A stretch of DNA of 64,000 nt from the NCBI GenBank assembly GCA_026418625.1, contig JAOABA010000022.1, forward strand, positions 10,572 to 74,571, read 5' to 3'. Under the pieces are notes generated by a model that was not told the origin of the DNA, made no database searches, and saw only the letters and a list, made by a program, of their open reading frames with translations. A program made the position numbers and the translations under genes. Positions 1,984 through 49,890 of this stretch are shown in pieces. Within the stretch, counting starts at the first letter, position 1; each line of letters opens with the position of its first letter. This DNA comes from Candidatus Kapaibacterium sp. (GTDB lineage Bacteria > Bacteroidota > Ignavibacteria > Kapaibacteriales > UBA2268).

Positions 1984-3465
1984 ATGAGTGAAAAAACAAG
2001 CACTGGAAAAAAAATTTTTTATATCGTTTTATTTCTTGCAACAGTCGTTATTGTATTCATATTAGGTTTACTTGCAGCTTCGATTTTCGAAAGGAGAGGT
2101 GAATCGGTAGCTCGTCTTGAACCCGTTAAAGAAATTGCCGAATGGGAACCAAGGAATGAGGTTTGGGGTGAAAATTACCCACGTGAATACGAAACATATA
2201 GAAAAACGCTTGACACAGGTTTTCGAAGCAAATATGCCGGCTCGGCTACCATAGATTACTTAGAAGATTATCCTGATTTAGTTGTTCTTTGGGCTGGTTA
2301 TCTGTTTTCAAGAGATTTCAAGCAAGCCCGTGGTCATGCTTATGCTATTAAAGATATCCGTCAAACGTTAAGAACTGGCGGGGTTGAATTCAGTCCTCAA
2401 CCCGGCACTTGTTGGTCCTGCAAAAGCACTGATGTTCCAAGGCTAATTCAATCAATGGGCGCCGAAGCCTTTTATAAATCCAAGTGGTCTGATTTGGGCG
2501 ATCAGGTCGTCAATCCAATCGGATGTCAAGACTGCCACGACCCCAAAACAATGGATTTAAGAATTACCAGACCTGCCTTGATTGAAGCTCTCGAAAGGCA
2601 GGGCAAAAAAATGAAAGATATTACACATCAAGAGATGCGATCGCTTGTTTGTGCACAATGTCACGTGGAATATTATTTCAAAGGTCCTGATAAATATTTG
2701 ACTTTTCCGTGGGACAAAGGCTTTAGTGCTGATTCAATGGAGTCATATTATAATGAAATTGCTTTCAAGGATTGGGAACATAAGCTCAGCAAAGCACCAA
2801 TGCTCAAAGCTCAACATCCCGATTATGAGTTGTATATGACCGGTATTCACGCTGCAAGGGGTGTTTCCTGTGCTGATTGTCATATGCCTTATAAAGTCGA
2901 AGGTGGGGTCAAATTTACTGATCATCACATTCAAAGCCCTCTAAATAATATTGCTAACTCCTGTCAGGTATGCCACAGACAAAGCGAAACACAATTACTT
3001 AAAGATGTTTATGACCGTCAGGATAGAGTAGCTGAAATTAGAAAAATAGCTGAATACTCATTGAGAAAAGCACATCTTGAAGCTGAATTAGCTTGGAAAA
3101 ATGAAGCAAGTGAAGATGAGATGAAACCTATACTTGAACTAATTAGGTCAGCTCAATGGAGATGGGATTGGGTCGCTGCTGCTAATTCAGTTGGATTTCA
3201 CTCACCTGTAGAAGCTCTCAGGGTTCTTGGCACTGCTATTGAGAGATCCGAAAAAGCTCGTGGTTTGCTAAATGTTGTATTTACAAAAAGAGGTGTAAGT
3301 TTACCCGTAACTCTGCCGGATGTCGGAACTAAGCTGATAGCTCAAAAATATATCGGACTCGATATTGAAAAGATTTTGCAGGATAAGCTTAATTTCTTGC
3401 AGACTGTTGTTCCTGAATGGGACAAGAAAGCTAAGTCCCGTCAAGGAACTTTGCAGGAATATTAG
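1984..3465 (+). CDS. nrfA: Cytochrome c552 nitrite reductase catalytic subunit NrfA (pentaheme, ammonia-forming).
   Basis: CWSCK (the Lys-ligated active-site heme motif diagnostic of NrfA) plus four CxxCH (CQDCH, CAQCH, CADCH, CQVCH). A signal/TM segment is at the N-terminus. AAGAGG RBS 7 nt before the ATG at 1984; the track start at 1960 overlaps nrfH. Confidence 0.9.
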   Translation: MSEKTSTGKKIFYIVLFLATVVIVFILGLLAASIFERRGESVARLEPVKEIAEWEPRNEVWGENYPREYETYRKTLDTGFRSKYAGSATIDYLEDYPDLVVLWAGYLFSRDFKQARGHAYAIKDIRQTLRTGGVEFSPQPGTCWSCKSTDVPRLIQSMGAEAFYKSKWSDLGDQVVNPIGCQDCHDPKTMDLRITRPALIEALERQGKKMKDITHQEMRSLVCAQCHVEYYFKGPDKYLTFPWDKGFSADSMESYYNEIAFKDWEHKLSKAPMLKAQHPDYELYMTGIHAARGVSCADCHMPYKVEGGVKFTDHHIQSPLNNIANSCQVCHRQSETQLLKDVYDRQDRVAEIRKIAEYSLRKAHLEAELAWKNEASEDEMKPILELIRSAQWRWDWVAAANSVGFHSPVEALRVLGTAIERSEKARGLLNVVFTKRGVSLPVTLPDVGTKLIAQKYIGLDIEKILQDKLNFLQTVVPEWDKKAKSRQGTLQEY

Positions 3466-4472: not shown

Positions 4473-5780
4473 TTAAATAATATTTATTTCTTTTGCGGAA
4501 ACAAGCGGGAGCTGATCCCAATCAGTAGTATATTTTGGTGTTCTCATATCTGCACGGGTTCGCCATTTACGGTTGATACCCGTTGCAGCATAAAACAATG
4601 TGTTCGAACCCATTTTCTTATTAACTTCATCAACAACTTCAGTGATTTTTGCCATTTTCATTCTATCCTCAGTATCAAAAATTGATGTTTGAGAACGATT
4701 CGTAGGCACTAAACCACTCAACATTACTCCCACTTTATAATATTTATAACCAATTCTGAAAATCTGTTCGACCCCCTTCATTGCATAAGAAATCAATTCT
4801 GAGGTAGAATCAGTCGGAACAGGTAGTTGAATCAGGACACCATTATGATATTGTGCCTCTTTTTTGAATGGGTTCGTTCTAAGAAAAACCGATAAGAGAT
4901 TAGCCGAAGATTTTTGTGCTCTCATTTTTTCGCTTGCCCTCGTTACAAAAAAAGCAATAGCCTCCTTAACTGAAGCAATGTCCTGAACTGTCTGACCGAA
5001 AGAGCGTGAGGACACAATAGCTTTCTTTGCTGGTGGGAAGTATTCATATTCTATACAGGGAATTCCCTTAAGCTCAAGAGCTGTCCGCAGACCCATCACT
5101 GTCATTTTCTTTTTTATCCACTTTTCGTTTGCATTTGCAAAATCATAAGCCGTAAAGATATTCTGTAAATTGAGAAGTTTTGTATATTGTCTGCCAACTC
5201 CCCAAATATCAGCAACTTCAGTATTTTTTAAGTAATAATCTTTATTTTCTAACCCATACAAATTCAGAACTCCTTTGTTCGAAGGAACCTTCTTGGCAAA
5301 TCTATTTGCTAATTTTGCTAATGTCTTTGTTTCGGCTATACCAATTGAAACAGGGATTCCTGTCCATTTTCTGACTGTGTTCCTGATTAAACGGCAATAA
5401 TCTGTTAAATCCTTATGTGAAAAACCTTCTAAATTAATAAAGGCTTCGTCTATTGAATAAATCTCGACATCAGGCGAAAAATGTTCCAATGTGGTCATAA
5501 CTCTGTGGGACATATCCCCATAAAGCGTATAGTTTGAAGAAAATACGTGAACATTATGTTTTTTTATTATTTCTTGAGCTTTGAAAAGCGGTTCACCCAT
5601 TTTGATTCCCAACTCTTTTGCTTCATTGGATCTGGCTATAATCATTCCATCATTATTTGAAAGGACAACAATCGGTTTTCCCCAAAGTTTGGGATTGAAA
5701 ACACGTTCGCAGGATGCATAGAAATTATTGCAATCTACGAGTGCAACCGGTTTTACTTTTTTTGATACCGTTCCTTCCAT
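4473..5780 (-). CDS. umuC: Y-family translesion DNA polymerase, UmuC-like.
   Basis: The N-terminus ALVDCNNFYASCERVFNPKLWGKPIVVLSNNDGMIIARSNEAKELGIKMGEP closely matches the UmuC/DinB catalytic core. No umuD is adjacent. Confidence 0.75.
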   Translation of the reverse strand: MEGTVSKKVKPVALVDCNNFYASCERVFNPKLWGKPIVVLSNNDGMIIARSNEAKELGIKMGEPLFKAQEIIKKHNVHVFSSNYTLYGDMSHRVMTTLEHFSPDVEIYSIDEAFINLEGFSHKDLTDYCRLIRNTVRKWTGIPVSIGIAETKTLAKLANRFAKKVPSNKGVLNLYGLENKDYYLKNTEVADIWGVGRQYTKLLNLQNIFTAYDFANANEKWIKKKMTVMGLRTALELKGIPCIEYEYFPPAKKAIVSSRSFGQTVQDIASVKEAIAFFVTRASEKMRAQKSSANLLSVFLRTNPFKKEAQYHNGVLIQLPVPTDSTSELISYAMKGVEQIFRIGYKYYKVGVMLSGLVPTNRSQTSIFDTEDRMKMAKITEVVDEVNKKMGSNTLFYAATGINRKWRTRADMRTPKYTTDWDQLPLVSAKEINII

Positions 5781-7075
5781 AAAACTTCAAGACGTTCTTT
5801 GAAAGACTTTTCTTTTCCAAAATTACCCGGGAGATAGAAAGCTTTGGCATTATAATCATCAGGGAAATAATTCTCCATAACAAAATTGCCCTCGTAATTA
5901 TGAGGATATTGGTAACCTTCGCTATAACCTTCGTCTCGCATCAGCTTTGTTGGTGCATTTCTCAGATGCATAGGCACAGTAACGGAAGCTCCTCTCCTTA
6001 TCTCTCCTAAAGCATTCATAAGTCCCATATAAGAAGCATTTGATTTATTGCAGGATGCAAGATAAGTAACGCCTTGAGCAAGATTTATCTGACATTCCGG
6101 CATTCCTATCATTTCAACAGCCTGAAAAACAGATATAGCAAGAGTCAGTGCAAATGGGTCTGCATTCCCGATATCTTCGCTTGCAAATACAACCATTCTT
6201 CTGGCAATGAAGCGGGGATCTTCACCTGCATCAAGCATTTTTGCAAGCCAGAAAAGAGCTGCATCTGGATCTGAGCCTCTAAGTGATTTTATAAAGGCTG
6301 AAATAGTATCGTAATGTGATTCACCTTTTTTATCATATTGGGCAGTTTTTTGCTGAAGTGCCTTTTCGAGCAATTCTCGAGTTAAAACTACCTCATTATT
6401 ATCTTTTTTAGCAATTTTGAAGGCTAATTCAATGGCATTAAGAGCTGTCCTCGCATCACCGGCTGAGATGGTAAATAAAAATTCCCAGTCATCAATTATT
6501 ATAGTATATTTTGAAAGTATCTCATCTTTTTGAAGTGCATTAATCACAATTGAACGAATGTCTTCATTCGATAATAGATGAAGACGATAGACCTGACAGC
6601 GGCTCAATAAAGCAGAATTTACCTCAAATGAAGGATTTTCAGTCGTTGCCCCAACCAGAGTTATTTCACCCTTTTCCACTGCGTGAAGCAAGGCATCCTG
6701 CTGATTTTTATTAAACCGATGGATTTCGTCAATGAAGAGCATTGTCCTTTTACCTGACTTCCTCAATAATTTAGCTCTATCAATAACAGTTCTTACTTCC
6801 TTTACACCGGAATCTACAGCGGACATACGTTCGAAATGATAGTCCCCTATTTTGGCAATTATCAATGCTAATGTTGTTTTTCCAGAGCCGGGTGGTCCCC
6901 AGAATATTATTGAAGGCAAATCTTTACTTTCGAGAAATTTCCTCAAAGGTCCGTCACTGCCAACCAAATGATTTTGTCCATAAATATCATCAAGAGTTTC
7001 AGGGCGAACTCTATCTGCAAGTGGTGATAAGATTTTTTGATCTTGTTTTTCATCATTTTGAAAAAACAAATCCAT
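5753..7075 (-). CDS. rarA: Replication-associated recombination protein A (RarA/MgsA AAA+ ATPase).
   Basis: Walker A GPPGSGKTTLA and Walker B LFIDEIHRFNK, with a C-terminal MgsA-type helical domain; 440 aa. Confidence 0.85.
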   Translation of the reverse strand: MDLFFQNDEKQDQKILSPLADRVRPETLDDIYGQNHLVGSDGPLRKFLESKDLPSIIFWGPPGSGKTTLALIIAKIGDYHFERMSAVDSGVKEVRTVIDRAKLLRKSGKRTMLFIDEIHRFNKNQQDALLHAVEKGEITLVGATTENPSFEVNSALLSRCQVYRLHLLSNEDIRSIVINALQKDEILSKYTIIIDDWEFLFTISAGDARTALNAIELAFKIAKKDNNEVVLTRELLEKALQQKTAQYDKKGESHYDTISAFIKSLRGSDPDAALFWLAKMLDAGEDPRFIARRMVVFASEDIGNADPFALTLAISVFQAVEMIGMPECQINLAQGVTYLASCNKSNASYMGLMNALGEIRRGASVTVPMHLRNAPTKLMRDEGYSEGYQYPHNYEGNFVMENYFPDDYNAKAFYLPGNFGKEKSFKERLEVLWKERYQKK

Positions 7076-7146
7076 CGGTAACTCCGATAATTATTTCGCA
7101 ATTTATTTATTTTTCATTGATTTGACGATGATGGACTATATATATT

Positions 7147-7183
7147 AAAAAAGGGGTGGCATAAATAAAATGACACCCCTTTG
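7147..7183 (-). terminator. Rho-independent terminator downstream of rpoC.
   Basis: On the minus strand CAAAGGGGTGTCAT...ATGCCACCCCTTTTTT: a 9-bp GC-rich stem followed by a T-run, just 3' of the rpoC stop. Confidence 0.6.
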
Positions 7184-7202
7184 ATAATTCAGTTAAAGAA
7201 CA

Positions 7203-10200
7203 TCACATAGCTATAGACTCAAATTCTGATTCAATTTCTTTATCAACTTCTTTGAACACTTCGACCTCAGGCTCTGGGGTTTCTACTCTACCAAAAATAT
7301 TACCAATATCACTAATAACTTTCATTTCCTGATAATGCCTTAATCCAGTTCCAGCAGGAATTAACTGCCCTAAGATAATATTTTCTTTCAAACCATTCAA
7401 TGTATCAATCTTTGCTGAGACGGAAGCATCGGATAATACTCTTGTAGTTTCTTGGAATGAAGCAGCTGATAACCAGCTTTCAGTTGTAAGTGATGCTTGA
7501 GTAATACCTAACAGCAAAGGTTCTGCTATGGCTGGTTCGGCAGGACGTGATTCTGGTAGTTGTCTTCCTTTTTTCTTAAGTTCAGTTATGATTTCTCTAA
7601 ATCTCTTTCTTGTAACTAATTGTCCTTCTTTAAGTTTTGAGTCGCCCTTTTCTGTAACAACAACCATATTTTTTAGCTTATCATTTTCATCAACGAACCT
7701 GATTCTATCAACCTGATCATTTTCGAGGAATGGAGAATCGCCGGAGTCAGAAATTTTCACTTTTTGAAGCATTTGCCTTACGATAATTTCAATATGTTTA
7801 TCATTAATTTTAACACCCTGCATACGGTAAACTTCCTGAATTTCGTTTACCAAATACTCCTGAACGGCATTCGGTCCTTTAATCCTTAAAATATCGTGAG
7901 GATTGACTGAGCCTTCAGTTAACCTTTCGCCAGCTCTTACGAAATCTTCTTCCTGAACAAGAATATATTTTCCGATTGGAACAGCATATTCTTTTTGAGT
8001 TTTTTCGTCGGGCGAGGTAACAATTATTATTCTCTGACCTCTTTTTTGTTTATCAAAAGAAACGATTCCGTCAATTTCAGAAACTATAGCAGGATTTTGA
8101 GGAGCCCGTGCCTCGAAAAGTTCTGTAACTCTCGGTAAACCACCAGTAATGTCCCTCATTCTGCCCAAATCTCTTGGGATTTTGACTAATTGAGTTCCAA
8201 CCCCAATCATTTCATCATCTTCAACTCTGATTTGTGCTTTAGTGGGAATACTATATGATTTAAGAACATTTCCTTTTTCATCCAAAATTTCTATTGTAGG
8301 TGATTTAGTTCTATCTCTGGATTCAACTACAACTTTGGTAATGTGCCCGGTCTGTTCATCATTTATTTCCCTATATGTAACGTTTAACGCAAGATCTTTG
8401 TATCTTACTTTACCACCAACTTCCGAAATAATTGTTGAGTTATAGGGATCCCACTCATAAATCATACTACCTTTTTTGACCATTTGCCCATTCTTAACTT
8501 TTAGTTCAGCACCATAAGTTGCATCATATTTTGTAAGAATTCGGCTACTTTCGGGGTCAACAATATTAATAACACCACTTCGGCTAACAACAATCTGAAC
8601 TTCATCATCAAATTCATTTAGATAAGAAACAATTCTCACATTCTCGAACTGAATCATACCATCAAATTTAGCGACTACTGATGATTGAGAAGCAACAAGA
8701 AGAGCGGTTCCACCAGTGTGGAATGTTCTTAATGTTAGCTGTGTTCCCGGCTCACCGATTGATTGTGCTGCTATAGTTCCAACAGCTTCACCAACATCAA
8801 CTAATTTTCCTGTTGCAAGGTTTCGACCGTAACATTTTGCACAAACACCTTTTCTCGATTCACAAGTAAGAACCGACCTAATTAAAACACTTTCAATAGA
8901 TGTTTCTTCTATTTTTCTTGCTATTTCTTCATCAATTACTTCACCAGCTTTGACTATAAGTTCATCTGTTAATGGATCGACTACGTCCAAAAGAGTTACT
9001 CTACCGATGATTCTTTCGAAAAGGGGCTCTTTAACTTCTTCTCCATCTTTAAGGGCTGTCATTTCAACCCCTCTGATTGTATGACAGTCGCTCTCAGAAA
9101 TAATAACATCTTGAGAAACATCGTGCAATCTTCTTGTTAAATAACCAGCGTCGGCTGTTTTGAGAGCTGTATCGGCTAAACCTTTTCTTGCTCCGTGTGT
9201 GGAAATGAAATATTCAAGAATAGAGAGTCCTTCTTTAAAGTTTGATATAATTGGGTTTTCAATAAGCTCACCAGTAGAACCCGATAGCGATTTTTTCGGT
9301 TTTGCCATTAAACCTCTCATACCGGCTAACTGTCTAATCTGCTCTTTGGAGCCTCTTGCTTGAGAGTCTAACATCATCCAGAAAGTATTGAAACCTTGAT
9401 TGGCTTTGGATAGCTCAGAATAAAGCCTATCAGCAACACGGTTTGTGGCAGTTGACCAAGTATCAATGATTTTATTATATCGTTCGCCGTGGGAAATAAC
9501 ACCACCTTGATAATTGTTTTCTACTTCGTCAATTTTCGCCTGAGCCGAATTAATAATGGTTTGTTTATCGTCTGGAACTAATACATCCCCGATACTGACC
9601 GAAAGACCACCTTTTGTAGCATAAGTAAATCCAATTTCTTTAAGTGCATCCAAAAATTCGACTGTTCTTGCCAATCCAACTGCTCTGAAACAAATACCAA
9701 TTATTTGTCTTAGTCTTTTCTTAGTTAATAATTCATTTAGAAATCCAATTTCTTTGGGAACAATTTGATTAAATAGGATACGACCTGTTGTAGTTTCAAT
9801 TAATTTACCTTCTATTCTAACTTTTATTTTTGCGTGAAGGTCGAGCGTCCCGCTATTATAAGCTATAATTACTTCTTCAGGAGATGAAAACATTCTGTTT
9901 TCTCCCATAGCACCGTGCCTGACTTTTGTTATGTAATAAACACCAAGAACCATATCTTGCGAGGGAACTGCAATTGGATCTCCGTTCTGTGTGTGCATAA
10001 TATTATGCGGTGCCAACATTAACAAAAGAGATTCAAGTTGAGCTTCGTAACTAAGAGGAACGTGAACTGCCATCTGGTCACCGTCGAAGTCAGCATTGAA
10101 AGCCGTGCAGACCAATGGGTGCAATTGTATTGCCTTTCCTTCAATTAATCTTGGTTGAAAAGCTTGGATACCGAGCCTGTGCAGAGTGGGAGCTCTGTTT

Positions 10201-18725: not shown

Positions 18726-18800
18726 TGCACGGGTGGAAGGACTTGAACCCTCAGCCTACGGTTTTGGAGACCGCCGCTCTGCCAATTGAGCTACACCCGT
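18726..18800 (-). tRNA. tRNA-Trp (anticodon CCA).
   Basis: Hand-folded cloverleaf: acceptor ACGGGTG/CACCCGT, anticodon loop CTCCAAA, T-loop GGTTCAAGTCC. Confidence 0.8.
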
Positions 18801-18806
18801 AAAATC

Positions 18807-18881
<75 letters not shown>

Positions 18882-18885
18882 AGAG

Positions 18886-18960
18886 CGGAGCGGGAAACGG
18901 GGTTCGAACCCGCGACCCTCAGCTTGGGAAGCTGATGCTCTACCAGCTGAGCTACTCCCG
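18886..18960 (-). tRNA. tRNA-Gly (anticodon CCC).
   Basis: GCGGGAGTAGCTCAGCTGGTAGAGC...anticodon loop TTCCCAA...GGTTCGAACC. Confidence 0.8.
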
Positions 18961-18992
18961 CTTTTCAAAAACACACCATTATAAACAACTTG

Positions 18993-19065
18993 AGCGGGAG
19001 ACGAGGCTCGAACCCGCGACCCTCAGCTTGGAAGGCTGATGCTCTACCAACTGAGCTACTCCCGC
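18993..19065 (-). tRNA. tRNA-Gly (anticodon TCC).
   Basis: GCGGGAGTAGCTCAGTTGGTAGAGC...anticodon loop CTTCCAA...GGTTCGAGCC. Confidence 0.8.
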
Positions 19066-19079
19066 ATTTTTTCTCTTTG

Positions 19080-19163
19080 TGGGCAGGGAAGGATTCGAAC
19101 CTCCGTAGGGCTGAGCCCAGCAGATTTACAGTCTGCCCCGTTTAACCGCTTCGGTACCTACCC
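19080..19163 (-). tRNA. tRNA-Tyr (anticodon GTA), with a long variable arm.
   Basis: GGGTAGGTACCGAAGCGGTTAAACGGG...anticodon loop CTGTAAA...variable arm GGGCTCAGCCCTAC...GGTTCGAATCC. Confidence 0.8.
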
Positions 19164-37791: not shown

Positions 37792-40227
37792 TCAGATAGC
37801 TCTTAATTTAGCGTTAAATTTCTTCTCAACTTTGCCAATTATATTGTCAATAACAGTTGTGATTTCTTTTTCTTCGAGAGTGTGATCTTCAGAATTAAAT
37901 ACCATCGAGAAGGCAATGCTTTTCGTCCCTTCAGGAATATTTTTTCCTTTATATAAATCGAAAATTTCAAGGCTTTTTAGCAGTTTTCCACCTTCTTTAA
38001 TTATCTCTTCATACAATAAGTTGGCAGGTAGATTATCCTCCACAAGAAAAGCTAAATCCCTTAGAACCGGTGGATAAGGCGAAACCTTTTGATATTTGTT
38101 TTCCTTTTGCTCAATTTTTCTTAGCTCCGTCAGATTCAGCCTTAAAATGTAAACTGGATGTCTAATATCATATTTTTGCTGAAATTCCTTACTGATTTCT
38201 CCAATTTCACCAATTATTTTCTCATTTAAATAAATAGCAAGATGATTAGCGTTGAAAATCTTGCTCTGTCCATTCGAATTATTTAGTATCAAAGTTCCGA
38301 GATTGAAGAAATTCTTTAAATCTTCAAAAATTCCTTTTATATCATAAAAATCTACTAATCTTGGTTTTTCGTCCCATCGAGTAGGTGATATTTCGCCCGA
38401 AATAGCAACCATAAGCTCTTCGATTTCCAGCACATTATGAATGAATTCATCAGCTGACTCAGTCCTGTGGAAAGACTTGCCAATTTCGAAAATCCGAATA
38501 TTTGAGGTTCCAAGAGCATTATTCCTTCCAATTGTTTTCAGAAATGAGGGAACGAGGGAAGTCCTCATCATTGACAATTGTTCACCTAAAGGATTCGAAA
38601 TTTTGAATGGAGTCTCGCCCATTATCTCGGCTGACTCAGGATCAACAATGTTTTGTGTTATGACCTCATTAAATCCCGAATAAGTCAAAAATCTTTTAAT
38701 CTTTTCCCTGAATGGATTAACCTGCAATTTCTCAGGAACTCCTTTTCCTGAAAAATCAATATTGCTCGTAAAGTCAGGAGAAAGGTTATCATAATTATAT
38801 AACCTTGCAATTTCTTCAATTAAATCAATTTCGAGCGATATGTCAACACGGTAATTTGGAATTTCAACCTGAATTTGGTTTGCATCCTCCGATATAATAT
38901 TAATGCCAAGTGATTTTAGCAGAGATTTAATCGTTTCATTTGATATTTCCAAGCCAATAATGTCCTTAGCTCTTTGAAATCTTAAATTTATGACTGGTTT
39001 GGCTTTTTTGACAGGGTAAACATCCATTACACCGCTTTCAGGTTCACCTCCGCAAATTTCTGCAATGAGTTGAGTGGCTCTGTTCGAAGCATAAATGATA
39101 TTATCAATATCAACACCTCGCTCGAAGCGATATGATGACTCGCTTTGTATTCCAAGCTTTTTCGATGTCCGCCTAATGGAGGAGGGATTGAAATAAGCTG
39201 ATTCGATAAGAACATTAGTTGTATTGTCGTTAATCTCGCTGTTTAACCCACCCATAACACCACCGATTGCAACAGACCTTTCGCCGTCACATATCATTAA
39301 AACAGAACTGTCAAGTTGTCGCTCAGTGTTGTCAAGAGTAATAAATTTTTCAGCGTCATTCGCTGATTTAACAATTATCTTATTCCCTTTCAGCAAATCT
39401 AAATCAAAAGCGTGAAGTGGCTGCCCGCATTCGAGCAATATATAATTCGTTATATCAACTACATTGTTAATAGGTCTTTGCCCTAACATTTTCAATCTGT
39501 TTTTGAGCCATTGAGGTGATTCGCTTACCTTTACATTTCGTATAACCCTTGCAGTATAACGTGGGCAATTCTCAACATCAATAATTTCAACACTGACTGA
39601 GTCCTCTGATTTAGTGTCAGCTTCATTAAAATTAATTTTGGGGTATTTAATTGGAACTTCTTTTCCAAAATTATATGAAATATAAGCCGCTATCTCTCTT
39701 GCAATACCGATATGGCTCAAACAATCGGAGCGGTTTGGTGTTATTCCGACTTCAAATACGATATCATTTACTCCAAGATAATCCGCAAGGCTAATTCCAT
39801 CAGTTACTTCTTGCGGTAAAACCCAAATTCCGCTTTTATCTTCGCCCAGACCAAGCTCATATTCCGAACAAATCATACCTTCGGAAACAATGTTTCTAAC
39901 TGGTCTGGTTTCGAGCTTTAAGCCATTTACAGGAACGATGGCTCCGGGCAGACCCAAAATAACAGATTGACCTGCAGCGACATTCGATGCTCCACAAACA
40001 ACAGTTCTAACATCTTCGTTTATTTTAACCTTGCAAACGGATAATTTGTCGGCATTTGGATGTTTCTCCTTTTCCAATACCTTAGCCGTAAAAAAACCTT
40101 GATATTTCTCTGCATAATTTTCAACAGCATCTATCTCAAGCCCGAGCATTGTCAATATATCAGAAAGCTCGGAAACACTGAAATCAAAGTCTATTAATTC
40201 TCTAAGCCAATTATAAGAAACAAGCAT
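37792..40227 (-). CDS. pheT: Phenylalanine--tRNA ligase beta subunit.
   Basis: 811 aa; the N-terminus MLVSYNWLRELIDFDFSVSELSDILTMLGLE and the B3/4, B5 and FDX-ACB domain order. Confidence 0.92.
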   Translation of the reverse strand: MLVSYNWLRELIDFDFSVSELSDILTMLGLEIDAVENYAEKYQGFFTAKVLEKEKHPNADKLSVCKVKINEDVRTVVCGASNVAAGQSVILGLPGAIVPVNGLKLETRPVRNIVSEGMICSEYELGLGEDKSGIWVLPQEVTDGISLADYLGVNDIVFEVGITPNRSDCLSHIGIAREIAAYISYNFGKEVPIKYPKINFNEADTKSEDSVSVEIIDVENCPRYTARVIRNVKVSESPQWLKNRLKMLGQRPINNVVDITNYILLECGQPLHAFDLDLLKGNKIIVKSANDAEKFITLDNTERQLDSSVLMICDGERSVAIGGVMGGLNSEINDNTTNVLIESAYFNPSSIRRTSKKLGIQSESSYRFERGVDIDNIIYASNRATQLIAEICGGEPESGVMDVYPVKKAKPVINLRFQRAKDIIGLEISNETIKSLLKSLGINIISEDANQIQVEIPNYRVDISLEIDLIEEIARLYNYDNLSPDFTSNIDFSGKGVPEKLQVNPFREKIKRFLTYSGFNEVITQNIVDPESAEIMGETPFKISNPLGEQLSMMRTSLVPSFLKTIGRNNALGTSNIRIFEIGKSFHRTESADEFIHNVLEIEELMVAISGEISPTRWDEKPRLVDFYDIKGIFEDLKNFFNLGTLILNNSNGQSKIFNANHLAIYLNEKIIGEIGEISKEFQQKYDIRHPVYILRLNLTELRKIEQKENKYQKVSPYPPVLRDLAFLVEDNLPANLLYEEIIKEGGKLLKSLEIFDLYKGKNIPEGTKSIAFSMVFNSEDHTLEEKEITTVIDNIIGKVEKKFNAKLRAI

Positions 40228-40322
40228 AAAAAAATAATATAAGTAATTAAAAGAATTGCAAATTAGTCAATTTAGATGAAATTTTTATTACCAAATTCCT
40301 CCAAGAAAAAATTGGGAATAAA

Positions 40323-40531
40323 TTTACTATGTCCGTCTTGGTGATTGGGTGGGGAAGTTTGTCAAAATTGAATAGCAACTACTTTCAAGTAGTGGAGAAA
40401 TAAATCATTTTTAAAGGTGCTTTACTGTAGAAACAACATCCCAGTCTGTGCAACAAAAGATGTCCTACACCTTTGAGGTGTAGGACATCTGAAAAATAGC
40501 TTTTTTGTCACTCTGAACGAAGTGAAGAGTC
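40323..40531 (+). repeat. Copy 1 of a ~205-bp hairpin-rich dispersed intergenic element (R element).
   Basis: About 90% identical to 40733-40936. It contains the 13-bp stem hairpin GATGTCCTACACC-TTTGA-GGTGTAGGACATC (40459-40489) and the hairpin ACTACTT-TCA-AGTAGT. Confidence 0.85.
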
Positions 40532-40663
40532 AATAATAATTCAATGACTTATGTGATATGGATTCTTCGCCTTCGGCTCCTAATAACTCCTTTTTACACA
40601 GCCTCGCATACAGGAATCTGAATTCATGATTTTCAACATCCTTTGCGAATTTGTTTTATCCAT

Positions 40664-40687
40664 AGAGACACAGAATTCTGTGTCTCT
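40664..40687. repeat. Perfect 24-bp palindrome between the two R-element copies.
   Basis: AGAGACACAGAA|TTCTGTGTCTCT, read directly from the sequence. Confidence 0.85.
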
Positions 40688-40732
40688 ACAGAGGATTGAT
40701 GTTTCAAATTTGCCATCAGGGCTTTACTATGT

Positions 40733-40936
40733 CCGTCTTCATGATTGGGTGGGGAAGTTTGTCAAAATTGAATAGCCACTACTTTTAAGTAGTGGAGAAA
40801 AAAATCATTTTTAAAGGTGCTTTCCGTTAGAACAGACTCCTCTTTCCGTGCAAAAAAGATGTCCTACACCTCTAAGGTGTAGGACATCTGAATAAATAGT
40901 ATTTTCGTAACACTTCACTTCGTTCAGAGTGACAAA
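40733..40936 (+). repeat. Copy 2 of the R element.
   Basis: Same order of motifs as copy 1. The hairpin at 40858-40888 keeps the identical 13-bp stem but carries a different loop (TCTAA). The terminal 21-nt segment (40913-40933) is the exact reverse complement of 40507-40527 in copy 1. Confidence 0.85.
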
Positions 40937-40970
40937 GAATCATTTTTTATACTTTTTACACAGCCTAAGA

Positions 40971-41195
40971 GGCAGGAGTTTTAGAGAATACAAAAGATTC
41001 CTGTTTGCACAGGAATGACGATGATTTTGACGGTGTCACTCCTGCGAAGGCAGGAGTTTTAAAGAACACAAAAGATTCCTGTTTGCACAGGAATGACGAT
41101 GATTTTGACGGTGTCACTCCTGCGAAGGCAGGAGTCTTAGAGTAATGAAGAGATTCCTGTCTCCACAGGAATGACAGGGAAGTTGGGGAAATCTC
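40971..41195 (+). repeat. Tandem direct repeat: 78-bp unit x 2.7, each unit with two hairpins.
   Basis: Units begin at 40971, 41049 and 41127 (GGCAGGAGTTTTAGAG...). The inner hairpin ATTCCTGT-TTGC-ACAGGAAT and the unit-junction hairpin CACTCCTGC-GAAG-GCAGGAGT(G) are both present. The third unit is diverged, with loop CTCC on a conserved stem. Confidence 0.85.
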
Positions 41196-41209
41196 TTAAT
41201 TAACAGTTA

Positions 41210-41500
41210 TTATTCTCCAAGAAGATATCTTGTAATTTCTTCCCATTCCTCTTCGAAAGTAGTTTTTGGTTTTGGACGTCCTGCAATGGAATACCAATAG
41301 GATGCATTCCATTCATTGGGCTCTTTTCTGTGAAGATAGGCATGAACCCAAGCAGCAGTTTTCGTATTCATTGCTTGAACAATATTATGAGCCTTGTCCC
41401 AGTTTCCTTGTGCTTCAAACCAAAGTGCCACGAGTTCTTTGCTAATTCCCGCTGGTGGATTTTCTTGATTTAATGTAGATTTAAATTCCTCAAATGTCAT
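41210..41500 (-). CDS. Hypothetical small protein (96 aa).
   Basis: The ORF begins 2 nt after the ispD stop and is Trp/His-rich. No recognisable family; coding status is plausible from operon context only. Confidence 0.4.
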   Translation of the reverse strand: MTFEEFKSTLNQENPPAGISKELVALWFEAQGNWDKAHNIVQAMNTKTAAWVHAYLHRKEPNEWNASYWYSIAGRPKPKTTFEEEWEEITRYLLGE

Positions 41501-41502
41501 AA

Positions 41503-42228
41503 TTAATAATACCTAACCTTTGCCAATACTTCTGATAGCCAAAAATCAGGTTTCGAGGTTATTTTTATATTGAATTCTTCGCCGGGGATTACGTGAACAT
41601 TATAACCTAAATTTTCCACTAAAGTTGCATCGTCTGTTACGATTTGTTCCCCATTTTTTAAAGATTGATAGGCTTGATAAATGATTTCAGTTTTGAATCC
41701 CTGCGGAGTTTGAACACTAACAAGAGTATCCCTTGCTATTGTGCCTTGTATGAAATTATCCTCATCAATCACTTTAATTGTTTCCTTAGGGGTCAAGCCC
41801 GGTATTGCTGCCCCAAATATTTTTGTAGCTTCAATTATTTCCTGAACAAGCAAAGGACTTGCAAATGGACGAACTGCATCGTGAATTAAAACAATTTCAG
41901 AATTGAGAACTGCCTTGGTATTCATAGCATTTAGAACCGAAAAATGTCTTTCCTTGCCTCCATCCACAAGGTCAGTTACCTTTGAAATATTATAGTCCCG
42001 AACATAAGCTTCGAGTTTGCTTTTATACTGAGGCAGCACAGAAACTACAATTGAAGTGATATCAGGTGTAATCTCAAAAATCAGAAGTGTTCTGACAATA
42101 ACGGGTATGCCATCCAAATTAACAAACTGTTTTGGAATGTTTCCGCCAAATCTGTCACCTGTTCCACCAGCGGGTATTATTGCCGCTATATTAGTTTTTT
42201 TCTTATCTTTCATAACGATATTTTTCAC
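41503..42228 (-). CDS. ispD: 2-C-methyl-D-erythritol 4-phosphate cytidylyltransferase.
   Basis: IAAIIPAGGTGDRFGGNIPKQFVNLDGIPVI matches the IspD N-terminus; 241 aa. Confidence 0.85.
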   Translation of the reverse strand: MKNIVMKDKKKTNIAAIIPAGGTGDRFGGNIPKQFVNLDGIPVIVRTLLIFEITPDITSIVVSVLPQYKSKLEAYVRDYNISKVTDLVDGGKERHFSVLNAMNTKAVLNSEIVLIHDAVRPFASPLLVQEIIEATKIFGAAIPGLTPKETIKVIDEDNFIQGTIARDTLVSVQTPQGFKTEIIYQAYQSLKNGEQIVTDDATLVENLGYNVHVIPGEEFNIKITSKPDFWLSEVLAKVRYY

Positions 42229-47659: not shown

Positions 47660-48022
47660 GTGATTATGCTTGAAGCTTATTTGCCATTGATATTTATGTT
47701 GATATTCGGATTCGGAATAGCAGTTATTTTTCTGGTTCTATCTGAATGGCTTGGTGCAAGGAGAATTACAAAAGAAAAGCAAACAACTTATGAGAGCGGA
47801 ATGCAACCTTTCAGGACTGCAAGAGACAGATTCTCAGTTAAGTTCTATCTTGTTGCAATGAGTTTTATAGTATTTGATATCGAGGTTGTATTTCTCTATC
47901 CTTGGGCTGTTCAGTTTAAAATGCTAAGTCCCGAAGCAATTATTGCTATGTTCATCTTCATCGCAATATTGTTTGCCGGATATTTTTATGAATTAAGAAA
48001 GGGAGGAATAGAATGGCAATAA
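47660..48022 (+). CDS. nuoA: NADH-quinone oxidoreductase subunit A.
   Basis: 120 aa, three TM helices, conserved YESGM and [12 protein letters not shown]. Confidence 0.88.
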
Positions 48023-48564
48023 ATGCATTAGAAAGAGATGGTTTTCTTACCACAACGGTAGAAAACGTTATTAAATGGGCACAAAAAAATTCTTTGTGGC
48101 CTATGCCGCTGGGTATATCCTGCTGTGCCATTGAGATGATGGCATTTGCCTCGCCAAGATTCGATGTTTCAAGATTTGGTTCGGAAGTTTTCAGGATGTC
48201 CCCAAGACAATCTGATTTACTGATAGTTGCCGGAACAGTTACTTACAAAATGTCTTGGGTTGTCCGTAAAATTTATGACCAGATGCCTGATCCCAAATGG
48301 GTGATTTCAATGGGGGTCTGTGCATCAACTGGTGGTATGTTCCGCAGCTATTCAGTTGTTCAAGGGATTGATCAGTTCCTTCCGGTTGATGCTTATGTTT
48401 CGGGGTGTCCCCCAAGACCAGAGGCTCTAATCAAAGCCCTTATGCTTATTCAGGAAAAAGTTCAGAAAGCACATAAACCAGATCTATTCAATTTCGGAAA
48501 GAATGTTTCTCCAACACCTGTTCAGAAACCTTTCCCGTCAAAACTGACTGAAGTGCACGTTTAA
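48013..48564 (+). CDS. nuoB: NADH-quinone oxidoreductase subunit B (N2 cluster subunit).
   Basis: CCAIEMM, GxCxxxGG ([11 protein letters not shown]) and VSGCPPRPE Fe-S ligand motifs. Confidence 0.9.
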
Positions 48565-48705
48565 AGCATTGATAAAATCACAGAATATAAATCTTAAAGG
48601 GATGTTTGTTCTAATATTTGGATAAACATCCTTTTTTGTTATAAATTAAGACCACCTCTTCTTCTTCCCTTTTTCACATTCCTGTGACGGCTGAAATATG
48701 AAATC

Positions 48706-48960
48706 AGGCTTTAAGGGAAGTTTGTAATGATTGAATAGCCACTTCTTTTAAGTAGTGGGTAAAAAAAATATTTCCAATAATGCCTTCGGTTAGAATAGAC
48801 AACCCTTTTTGTGTAACAAAAGATGTCCCACACCTCTAAGGTGTAGGACATCTGAAAAGATAGTATTTTTGTCACTCTTCACTGAGTTCAGAGTGACAAA
48901 CAACCACTTTTTATGCTTTTTACACAGCCTCATGCACAGAAATGACTTTGAAAGTGCAAT
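48706..48960 (+). repeat. Copy 3 of the R element plus a degenerate 78-bp-type unit, in the convergent intergenic region after nuoB.
   Basis: Same motif order as 40323-40531, but it lacks the first ~28 nt. The hairpin at 48822-48852 has one mismatch in its stem. It is followed by TTTTTACACAGCCT and a degenerate unit, as at the 40.9 kb locus. Confidence 0.8.
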
Positions 48961-49041
48961 AAAAGCTGTCCGACATCTTGAAAATGTCGGACAGCTCAAC
49001 ATAATTATTTGGTTTAGAAGAACAAAACGCTTCGAGTATTT

Positions 49042-49890
49042 TTACTTCCTCCTGAAAACAGCGTCAGAGCGAAATTCGAGCTTGGAATCAATTGTAGTCA
49101 ATCGAGTATTTTTCAGTTGAATTTCATAAGGAACTTGCTCCATTTGGTTAGAACCTGCTTTTTTTGATGGCTTTGGAAATTGAACTTCTGTATTGATTGC
49201 TATAGGAACTGCCATAGGTTTCATTATATCTGCGAATTCAAGCTGAGAATCATAACCCCAAGGAATTTTCCACTCAAGCAATTTGAAAAAGAACTTTGTC
49301 TTTAAAGTCAGTTTTGCCGGACGAGGCTTAAGAACTATATATCCGCTGTCAGTGCCTTCAAGATTGAACGAAACCGGTTCGTTCAGGTAAATTTGAACTT
49401 CAGGTGAAATAGAAGCAGGAACGCCGATATATTTACCTGAAGCGCTGATAGCTCCCTTCCCCTCTATTTCAATTTTTCCCTCAATAATATTCTTATCAAA
49501 TTTAGAAAAATTTATTGCTTTGATATTAACCGAAAAACTTCCAGTATCAATATTGATGTAGTTTGTGTAGTTGATACCTAAAACCGATTTATCCTCTTTA
49601 ACCACATTTTTCGATTGCCGGAAAATAATCTTAATATCATCTTCTCTTCTATTGGAAAGAGCTTTCAATATAGTATTTAAAGGATTAACACTTAAACGAA
49701 GGATAAAATCATTCCCTGAGGGTAGATTTTTTGTTCTGTCATCTATGTTTCTATCAGCTAAATTGATTTGAGGTTGATAAAAATCAATCAATTTTTGTGA
49801 TTGTTCAATTGTCGGCAAGTCAATACTTTTACATCCAAACAAAGTGATAATAATTGATATGAATATAAAAATTAAACTGTAACTTTTCAT
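49042..49890 (-). CDS. Hypothetical lipoprotein.
   Basis: Signal peptide with lipobox LFGC. No recognisable domain. Confidence 0.45.
   Translation of the reverse strand: MKSYSLIFIFISIIITLFGCKSIDLPTIEQSQKLIDFYQPQINLADRNIDDRTKNLPSGNDFILRLSVNPLNTILKALSNRREDDIKIIFRQSKNVVKEDKSVLGINYTNYINIDTGSFSVNIKAINFSKFDKNIIEGKIEIEGKGAISASGKYIGVPASISPEVQIYLNEPVSFNLEGTDSGYIVLKPRPAKLTLKTKFFFKLLEWKIPWGYDSQLEFADIMKPMAVPIAINTEVQFPKPSKKAGSNQMEQVPYEIQLKNTRLTTIDSKLEFRSDAVFRRK

Follow-up and report, generated by a model that had tools for sequence, protein, structure and literature searches.

A conserved hairpin in a Kapaibacterium genome as a probable REP unit tied to RAYT-like transposases

A strong hairpin recurs in a stretch of 64,000 nucleotides from Candidatus Kapaibacterium sp. 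(contig JAOABA010000022.1; the whole stretch is called the window below), and we traced it from there into related genomes. Judged by sequence comparison, the hairpin is quite probably a repetitive extragenic palindromic (REP) unit, of a family that has multiplied in genomes of the Kapabacteria/Ignavibacteriota type and is tied to a Y1 (HUH) tyrosine transposase resembling the REP-associated tyrosine transposases (RAYTs). The hairpin thus adds a further case to an established class of bacterial repeats and does not represent a novel type of element.

The earlier note that drew attention to the hairpin had described a 13-bp stem with a 5-nt loop, and the sequences are present as it gave them: the pattern GATGTCCTACACC-N5-GGTGTAGGACATC occurs free of mismatches at 40459-40489 (loop TTTGA) and 40858-40888 (loop TCTAA), and with one mismatch, a T to C change in the 5' arm, at 48822-48852, where the loop is again TCTAA. 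None of 100 shuffles matched this pattern. The dimensions had to be revised: according to both folding and a repeat finder, the stem comprises 15 bp, AGATGTCCTACACCT pairing with AGGTGTAGGACATCT, and the loop only 3 nt. Copy 1 has the loop TTG, whereas copies 2 and 3 share CTA; each is a single transition away from TTA, and the difference could have come about either through two transitions from TTA or through a flip and one change. The folding energy is about -25 kcal/mol with a z-score of -7 to -9, irrespective of the strand, and the hairpin represents a 33-nt palindromic unit able to form a stem-loop, within the 20-40 nt typical of REP units. A scan of the whole window for strong hairpins returned 14, of which three are these copies and a fourth is a diverged member of the family (table 1). 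This fourth member has the upstream flank GTGCAAtAAA, GTGCAAnAAA being common to all copies, carries a compensatory A-T to C-G change on both sides of its outer stem, and lies about 50 nt 3' of the stop codon of the minus-strand gene 49042-49890. All four window copies are intergenic (four in 64 kb). In an alignment of the three repeated blocks that contain copies 1 to 3, the 30 stem positions show 0, 1, and 1 differences, compared with 19%, 29%, and 19% divergence in the flanks (binomial P = 0.0016, 0.0005, and 0.013); the conservation of the stem in the window exceeds chance. An Rfam scan of the window reported only five tRNAs at gathering scores, and the hairpin had no match to an RNA family.

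The family extends well beyond the window. We scanned one genome per species with the pattern AAGATGTCC-N15-19-GGACATCTGA, in which the outer 8 bp are fixed while the inner 7 bp and the loop may vary, and found at least 108 loci, mainly in metagenome-assembled genomes (MAGs) of the Kapaibacterium/Ignavibacteria type, with at least 154 family hairpins counted in these loci. Among the matches listed, 47 loci belong to CAZOBD01, 16 to CAZCLJ01, and four to six each to OW818654.1, JAVSMQ01, DAIOVK01, and JAERMQ01; both CAZOBD01 and CAZCLJ01 are labelled "uncultured Hyphomicrobiales," but in their genes they are similar to the window and to Kapaibacterium MAGs. Related genomes can hold many dispersed, mostly extragenic copies, as in CAZOBD01 with its at least 47 loci. 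It should be noted that a few of the matches are chance occurrences inside genes of unrelated bacteria, such as Achromobacter, and that the gene context outside the window rests on crude open reading frame (ORF) calls.

Comparison of these copies favours a constraint on the pairing. For matches with a 17-nt centre, the free part is palindromic in 104 of 108 cases, and 687 of the 728 free pair cells are Watson-Crick pairs, with the pair types switching between subfamilies (pair 9: AT 60, TA 24, GC 10; pair 13: TA 81, CG 21; pair 14: CG 85, TA 18). The free inner stem has an entropy of 0.60 bits; for the loop and the flanks, the values are 1.48 and 1.76, respectively. A formal covariation count was made on 65 distinct family sequences, with the outer stem fixed and chance matches included. 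Six of the seven free stem pairs have changes on both sides, 89% of the pair cells form a standard pair (74% in shuffles), and 73 cells are changed on both sides, compared with 21.1±3.4 in shuffles; the covariation score of 0.447 was reached by none of 500 shuffles (0.182) and falls to 0.08-0.14 with slid partners. The stem covaries, which supports the proposal of the earlier note that the secondary structure itself is under selection: additional copies retain the pairing, the opposite of random changes in stem and loop alike. The conservation of the outer stem across genomes stems partly from how the copies were collected, as the search pattern fixed it, and neighbouring units that were not anchored by the pattern show outer-stem variants (AGATGGAC.., AGATGTGC.., and AGATGTCG..).

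The consensus of the family unit is a near-perfect 33-bp palindrome consisting of AGATGTCC-N-ACAYYT, a 3-nt centre, and then the reverse complement, in flanks that are A-rich on the 5' side and GA or GG on the 3' side and that differ between genomes. The loop had been regarded as free but is not entirely so: loop bases 1 and 3 are complementary in 72 of 108 copies and in 35 of 58 distinct ones, with 25% expected (P ~1e-8), and the symmetry therefore extends over the whole 33 bp except for a single central base. Among loops with G..C ends in the largest subfamily, this central base is most often G (20 copies), followed by C (9) and A (3), a pattern expected from flipping of the palindrome. Mismatches in the stem (G.T 10, A.C 17; P=0.25) favour the RNA of neither strand. 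These observations point to a symmetry that is made and kept at the level of DNA, not RNA.

Each 15-nt arm is moreover self-complementary (4-6 of 6 pairs around a 3-nt centre, e.g., AGATGT-CCA-ACATCT), and two folds are therefore open to the 33-mer, a single long hairpin or a pair of mini-hairpins, in the manner of a REP doublet forming a hairpin (REPIN) that has no spacer. Self-complementary arms were also observed in a hairpin of unrelated sequence at locus L144 (2449-2481, ATTCAT-CCG-ATGACT; 5/6 pairs).

The link to a transposase comes from relatives of the window. Hairpin-anchored loci were searched for Y1 transposases, at first with sequences of E. coli RayT and IS200 as queries, which gave a single weak match (E=0.03) in locus L049 (OW818654.1). 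The corresponding gene at 6862-7467 carries MPTNFHFLV and YIHQNPVRSKLV and scores 24.6 bits with Pfam Y1_Tnp, above the cut-off of 23, and 57.8 bits (E=1e-15) with NCBIfam NF047646, "REP-associated tyrosine transposase," below the cut-off of 80. An in-frame stop codon makes it a probable pseudogene. The gene is embedded in family hairpins, with one upstream, one inserted in frame, and five downstream in an array with a 53-bp period, and it is the single RAYT-like gene found in 725 kb of hairpin-anchored loci, which fits a low-copy RAYT. At E<=1e-10, the gene has 647 homologues; Kapabacteria, Ignavibacteriota, and Bacteroidota account for most of them, and some homologues are named "REP element-mobilizing transposase RayT" in their source.

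Gene neighbourhoods were inspected for six of the 647 homologues. The RAYT-like gene of CAZCLJ01 (L142) has six family hairpins upstream, one inside, and five downstream, and that of JANJUO01 (L143) has three upstream, two inside, and three downstream, in the variant AGATGTGCCACACCT. In JAHCIB01 (L140/141), AATGAACTCCACCT is found downstream of the gene at both loci, and AGATGGACTCCACCT upstream in L140 only, the contig of L141 having almost no upstream flank. In P0028 (L134-139), one hairpin lies inside the gene and a downstream array has a period of ~74 nt. Together with L049, this makes five related genomes in which a RAYT-like gene is flanked by family units, and each transposase lineage is accompanied by its own stem variant. 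The units inserted in frame are always located just after the HuH motif (L049 7061-7096; L142 3341-3374; L143 2694-2781; L134-139 3213-3245), and the protein alignment accordingly has a variable insert of 0 to ~40 residues right after HuH (columns ~106-140) that reads like translated repeat units (..DVQHFESVGHL.., ..DVSHFGSVAHLE..). The motifs MPTHFHFLV, YIHQNPVRS, and FSSYQDY are found in these transposases. Since members of the family flank genes for RAYT-like transposases, a protein-binding or recombination site is the best fit among the roles that the earlier note had listed for the hairpin.

The action of E. coli TnpA-REP and of the IS200/IS605 TnpA provides a model for how such a system could work. 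By this analogy, a unit in single-stranded DNA would fold into the 15-bp hairpin, and the transposase would recognise the folded stem and its foot, but not the loop, and would cut and rejoin the DNA beside the stem, thereby copying or moving units and building tandem arrays. Variants still able to fold would be the only ones propagated, which would explain both the paired substitutions in the stem and the drifting loops and flanks. In the window, the whole block of ~250-340 bp was duplicated three times; the REP stem has remained intact, and the rest has diverged by 19-29%. We infer that the genome of the window itself encodes the transposase, that the enzyme acts on this hairpin, and that its activity is the reason for the conservation of the stem.

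Several observations weigh against reading the hairpin as a REP unit with a RAYT-like partner. The transposases score 51-65 bits with NF047646 (E=1e-14 to 1e-18), their sole family match, and hence stay below its cut-off of 80, and their best match in the structural database, the E. coli TnpA-REP structure PDB 4ER8, is weak (profile E=0.044). No RAYT-like gene was found in the 64-kb window, and the link to the transposase rests on relatives with ~70% nucleotide identity in shared genes. The gene of P0046 (L144) is preceded, 20 nt upstream, by a hairpin of different sequence with a 15-bp stem and a 3-nt loop, and that of P0058 (L145/146) has no flanking hairpins. The canonical REP foot GT[AG]G (or CGTC) is absent, the stem starting with AGATG and ending with CATCT. 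Finally, the three window copies arose through duplication of the block and not through three separate insertions, and the window itself therefore shows no mobility of the unit.

The resemblance to known REP/RAYT systems (REPtrons and REPINs; TnpA-REP of E. coli and Pseudomonas) covers a palindrome of 33 nt with tens of extragenic copies in a genome, units that are often arrayed in tandem or mixed with other motifs, like the bacterial interspersed mosaic elements (BIMEs) of E. coli, and units that flank a low-copy Y1/HUH transposase gene, with a repeat variant for each transposase lineage. The family differs from them in its missing GT[AG]G foot, in its nearly perfect palindrome with a 3-nt centre, where E. 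coli and Pseudomonas stems are imperfect and bulged, in transposases below the NCBIfam RayT cut-off, and in hosts that are Kapabacteria-like Bacteroidota/Ignavibacteriota and not Proteobacteria. The unit falls outside the GTAG and CGTC superfamilies of PMC3733652, and compares with the "atypical" structures of TnpA-REP subclass 2.6. Proteins of this Bacteroidetes subclass are ~179 aa long and carry the Y motif YIH[QN]NP and an SS motif; their genes are bordered by "atypical secondary structures" that recur at other places of the genome. In-frame repeat insertions were reported to be unique to subclass 2.4; the two subclasses correspond to Bertels groups 5 and 4, respectively (Quentin et al. 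2018, PMC6006769). Like those of subclass 2.6, the transposases described here have a Bacteroidetes host, the motif YIH[QN]NP, a serine motif that follows the catalytic Tyr, a length of ~179 aa, and genes with such flanking structures, and their in-frame insertions match the trait of subclass 2.4, the other motifs fitting 2.6; they differ in a HuH motif THFH instead of NH[LIV]H and a W motif FQ instead of WQ. This assignment was made by eye from the motifs and not with the authors' profiles. A literature search for REP elements in Ignavibacteria returned nothing specific.

A more far-reaching interpretation, which we put forward only tentatively and consider possible rather than probable, is that of an uncharacterised Kapabacteria/Ignavibacteriota REP-RAYT lineage. 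Its unit would be a "REPIN" with zero spacer, made of two inverted 15-nt mini-hairpins (AGATGT-NNN-ACAYYT) and able to switch between one 15-bp and two 6-bp hairpins. The transposase of this lineage would withstand having its own repeat inserted in frame after HuH time and again, and units would have been co-opted as one-way terminators.

Through this reading, a conspicuous conserved hairpin finds its place in a REP-transposase system of a lineage that has been little studied and is known mainly through metagenomes, and the family gains a concrete sequence definition and a candidate cognate transposase clade. No new category of biology is opened by this; the system offers a test case for RAYT-type recognition of hairpins without the canonical GTAG foot, and for annotation it helps with units and peptide-like insertions inside genes that would otherwise be misread.

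Among other explanations, a primary role as an intrinsic terminator or 3' mRNA-stabilising stem-loop for minus-strand transcripts, recurring through duplicated gene 3' ends, appears unlikely. The minus strand of the three main window copies indeed reads as a stable stem followed by a T-run, all window copies lie 3' of minus-strand genes (41210-41500, 49042-49890), a terminator scan reports two of the hairpin copies (five sites in the region, 0.8 expected), and the mismatch of copy 3 is a G.U wobble on the minus-strand RNA only. Family units within 100 nt after a stop codon also prefer the T-run orientation (25 versus 11; P=0.03). The orientation with respect to neighbouring genes is nevertheless mixed (20 co-oriented, 17 anti, 14 convergent, and 12 divergent, based on the crude ORF calls), mismatches show no wobble bias on either strand, and the complementarity reaching into the loop would be unneeded for the folding of RNA. 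Units also occur in tandem arrays and in frame within coding sequence, other window genes (pepD, nuoB) have ordinary short GC-stem terminators, and the clustering around transposase genes is left unexplained. Dispersed-repeat terminators, such as paired uptake sequences in Neisseria and REPs acting as terminators, are alike in having a stem then a T-run on one strand, often just after stop codons, and unlike the present family, in which the orientation is inconsistent, half-sites are not clearly enriched, and units also sit in arrays and genes. Mixed orientation and absent wobble bias speak against a pure terminator role; a secondary, co-opted use as a minus-strand terminator is plausible, and such co-option of REPs is proposed in the literature (PMC3733652).

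It is very unlikely that the hairpin is functionless, that is, a passive palindrome within a segmental duplication that is kept perfect by intrastrand template switching or by gene conversion between arms or copies, without selection. Palindromic modules do rearrange in place here, as evidenced by the neighbouring hairpin H3, which is inverted in copy 1, the near-perfect palindromy through the loop fits a symmetric generation of sequence, and the central bases are distributed as flipping would give. This leaves unexplained, however, why several species have dozens of copies dispersed through a genome, why stems are specific to subfamilies, and why units are enriched around and inside RAYT-like genes, and correction from arm to arm can coexist with a REP unit without replacing that explanation. 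The idea of a double-stranded operator for a dimeric DNA-binding or nucleoid protein of the host, reading AGATGT/ACAYYT hexamers that alternate at 9-bp spacing, seems extremely improbable. The unit is a perfect 33-bp palindrome whose commonest subfamily arm, AGATGT-CCA-ACATCT, provides four hexamers per unit in alternating orientation, and E. coli REP/BIME elements bind gyrase and IHF. The inner-stem hexamers, though, vary freely between genomes as long as they pair, which argues for structure and not for base-specific recognition of a duplex; no candidate protein was identified, and single half-sites are not clearly enriched, with GATGTCC found 8 times outside hairpins in the window where 4 are expected.

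Two further candidates were rejected. A pair of DNA uptake sequences does not agree with the numbers in the window, where GATGTCC occurs 14 times (6 in hairpins) against 4 expected and AGATGTCC once outside hairpins, and a clustered regularly interspaced short palindromic repeat (CRISPR) array is not supported, the arrays in L049, L142, and L134-139 having near-identical spacers, not unique ones.

Units with the AGATGTCC foot are also present in filamentous cyanobacteria. In the cyanobacterial MAGs L037 (Caldora sp., 4726-4761) and L068 (Symploca sp., 2122-2157), perfect palindromes with the outer stem of the family (AAGATGTCCGACTTCTTCAAGAAGTCGGACATCTGA) have shared flanks; they may represent the same repeat-transposase lineage in another Phylum, or convergence.

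The surroundings of the hairpin in the window (35% G+C) are composite. The first site, with copies 1 and 2, lies between pheT (37792-40227, minus) and two further minus-strand reading frames, a 96-aa ORF and then ispD (41210-42228); the second, with copy 3, is bordered by nuoB (48013-48564, plus) and the minus-strand gene 49042-49890, and nuoB is equipped with a terminator hairpin of its own at ~48592-48632. Each copy is part of a repeated block of ~250-340 bp, two of these blocks forming a tandem pair (period 400 bp) and the third located 8 kb off. The blocks consist of five parts in the order of a gene remnant encoding a type IX secretion system (T9SS) tail, the hairpin H1 (TTGAATAGCCACTACTTTTAAGTAGTGG), the REP hairpin, the hairpin H3 (GTCACTCT..AGAGTGAC), and an end motif.

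Table 1. Positions of the hairpins, repeated blocks, and tandem repeats in the window.
Feature	Positions	Strand	Description
REP-type hairpin, copy 1	40458-40490		AGATGTCCTACACCT ttg AGGTGTAGGACATCT, 15-bp stem; minus-strand sequence after stem: TTTGTTGCAC
REP-type hairpin, copy 2	40857-40889		stem as in copy 1, loop cta; minus-strand sequence after stem: TTTTTTGCACG
REP-type hairpin, copy 3	48821-48853		one mismatch (AGATGTCCcACACCT), loop cta; minus-strand sequence after stem: TTTGTTAC
Diverged fourth family member	48964-48996		AGCTGTCCGACAT cttgaaa ATGTCGGACAGCT
Mosaic block, copy 1	40322-40604	+	short remnant of T9SS C-terminal domain (CTD; ..IYYVRLGDWVGKFVKIE, stop; ends 40375); H1 40368-40395; REP hairpin; H3 40507-40532; extra insert of ~40 nt; end motif CTTTTTACACAGCCT 40590-40604
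Mosaic block, copy 2	40626-40966	+	longer T9SS-CTD remnant (MIFNIL..QRIDVSNLPSGLYYVRLHDWVGKFVKIE, stop; ends 40775); H1 40768-40795; REP hairpin; H3 40907-40933; end motif 40952-40966
Mosaic block, copy 3	48697-48930	+	CTD remnant with 24-nt deletion; H1 48731-48758; REP hairpin; H3 48871-48897; end motif 48916-48930
Three tandem 78-bp repeats	40970-41203	+	abut block copy 2; each with hairpin ATTCCTGT..ACAGGAAT, then GAC

The earlier note had spoken of copies of one element, a view that did not hold. An H1-anchored scan of metagenomes gave 28 further H1 copies, and the REP hairpin was 3' of none of them, as read by eye in their 260-nt downstream flanks; a single mobile element composed of T9SS tail, H1, and hairpin was rejected on these grounds. 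About 12 of the 28 copies form the left end of a unit of ~150 bp that resembles a miniature inverted-repeat transposable element (MITE), with the inverted repeats TTGAATAGCCACT and AGTGGCTATTCAA, and five are located directly 3' of the stop codon of a T9SS C-terminal domain, as in the window. H1 and the other modules thus look like independent units, H1 being a dispersed repeat in its own right, and since its copies elsewhere occur without the hairpin, the block is a mosaic assembled from separate modules, and its duplication as a unit came later. The REP hairpin was also rejected as a MITE: its unit is the palindrome alone, in flanks that differ between genomes, and the MITE-like form belongs to the neighbouring H1. 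The MITE-like unit bearing H1 (TTGAATAGCCACTACTTTYAAGTAGTGG) reads TTGAATAGCCACT..GGGATTTATCC..GTGACTAAAGTC..AGTGGCTATTCAA (among L109-L133).

H3 of copy 1 is inverted in place relative to copies 2 and 3, with 24 of 27 positions matching in inverted and 16 of 27 in direct orientation, and H3-related modules (GTCATT..GAACGAAGTGAGGAAT) are present in CAZCLJ01 loci. Several palindromic modules, each independent of the others, thus make up the mosaic of intergenic regions in these genomes. Those of CAZOBD01 (L002-L106; e.g., L022, L035, L083) are chains of varied palindromic modules in variable order and orientation, such as GTCATTGCGAGC..GCAATGAC, GACCCCACCCC..GGGGTGGGGC, and CATTCCCAAATCGGAGTTTGGGAATG, and the family unit, as one among many such modules strung between genes, resembles the mosaic elements of E. 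coli.

The T9SS tail remnants correspond to the last 18-50 codons of a gene (..GLYYVRLHDWVGKFVKIE, stop) at 40322-40375, 40626-40775, and ~48697-48745, with no intact gene nearby. Intact relatives of the remnant end in ..GVYFVRVGGRVGKFVKI in L021 and in ..GMYFVRIGDRVGKFVKL in L088, each followed by the stop codon; in L088 (~6082-6434), an intact gene ends in ..GDRVGKFVKL and a stop; next come 49 codons that duplicate its tail, and after these a family hairpin. The remnant of block 2 contains, at 40663-40688, a perfect palindrome with an 11-bp stem (TAGAGACACAG aatt CTGTGTCTCTA, centre GAATTC), which may be another inserted palindromic unit. The 78-bp repeats are each terminator-like on the minus strand; their hairpin ATTCCTGTTTGCACAGGAAT is followed by GAC, a second pairing, ACTCCTGC..GCAGGAGT, spans the borders of the units, and motifs of the form "hairpin + AATGAC" also recur in related genomes. 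Elsewhere in the window, five tRNA genes are clustered on the minus strand at 18728-19163.

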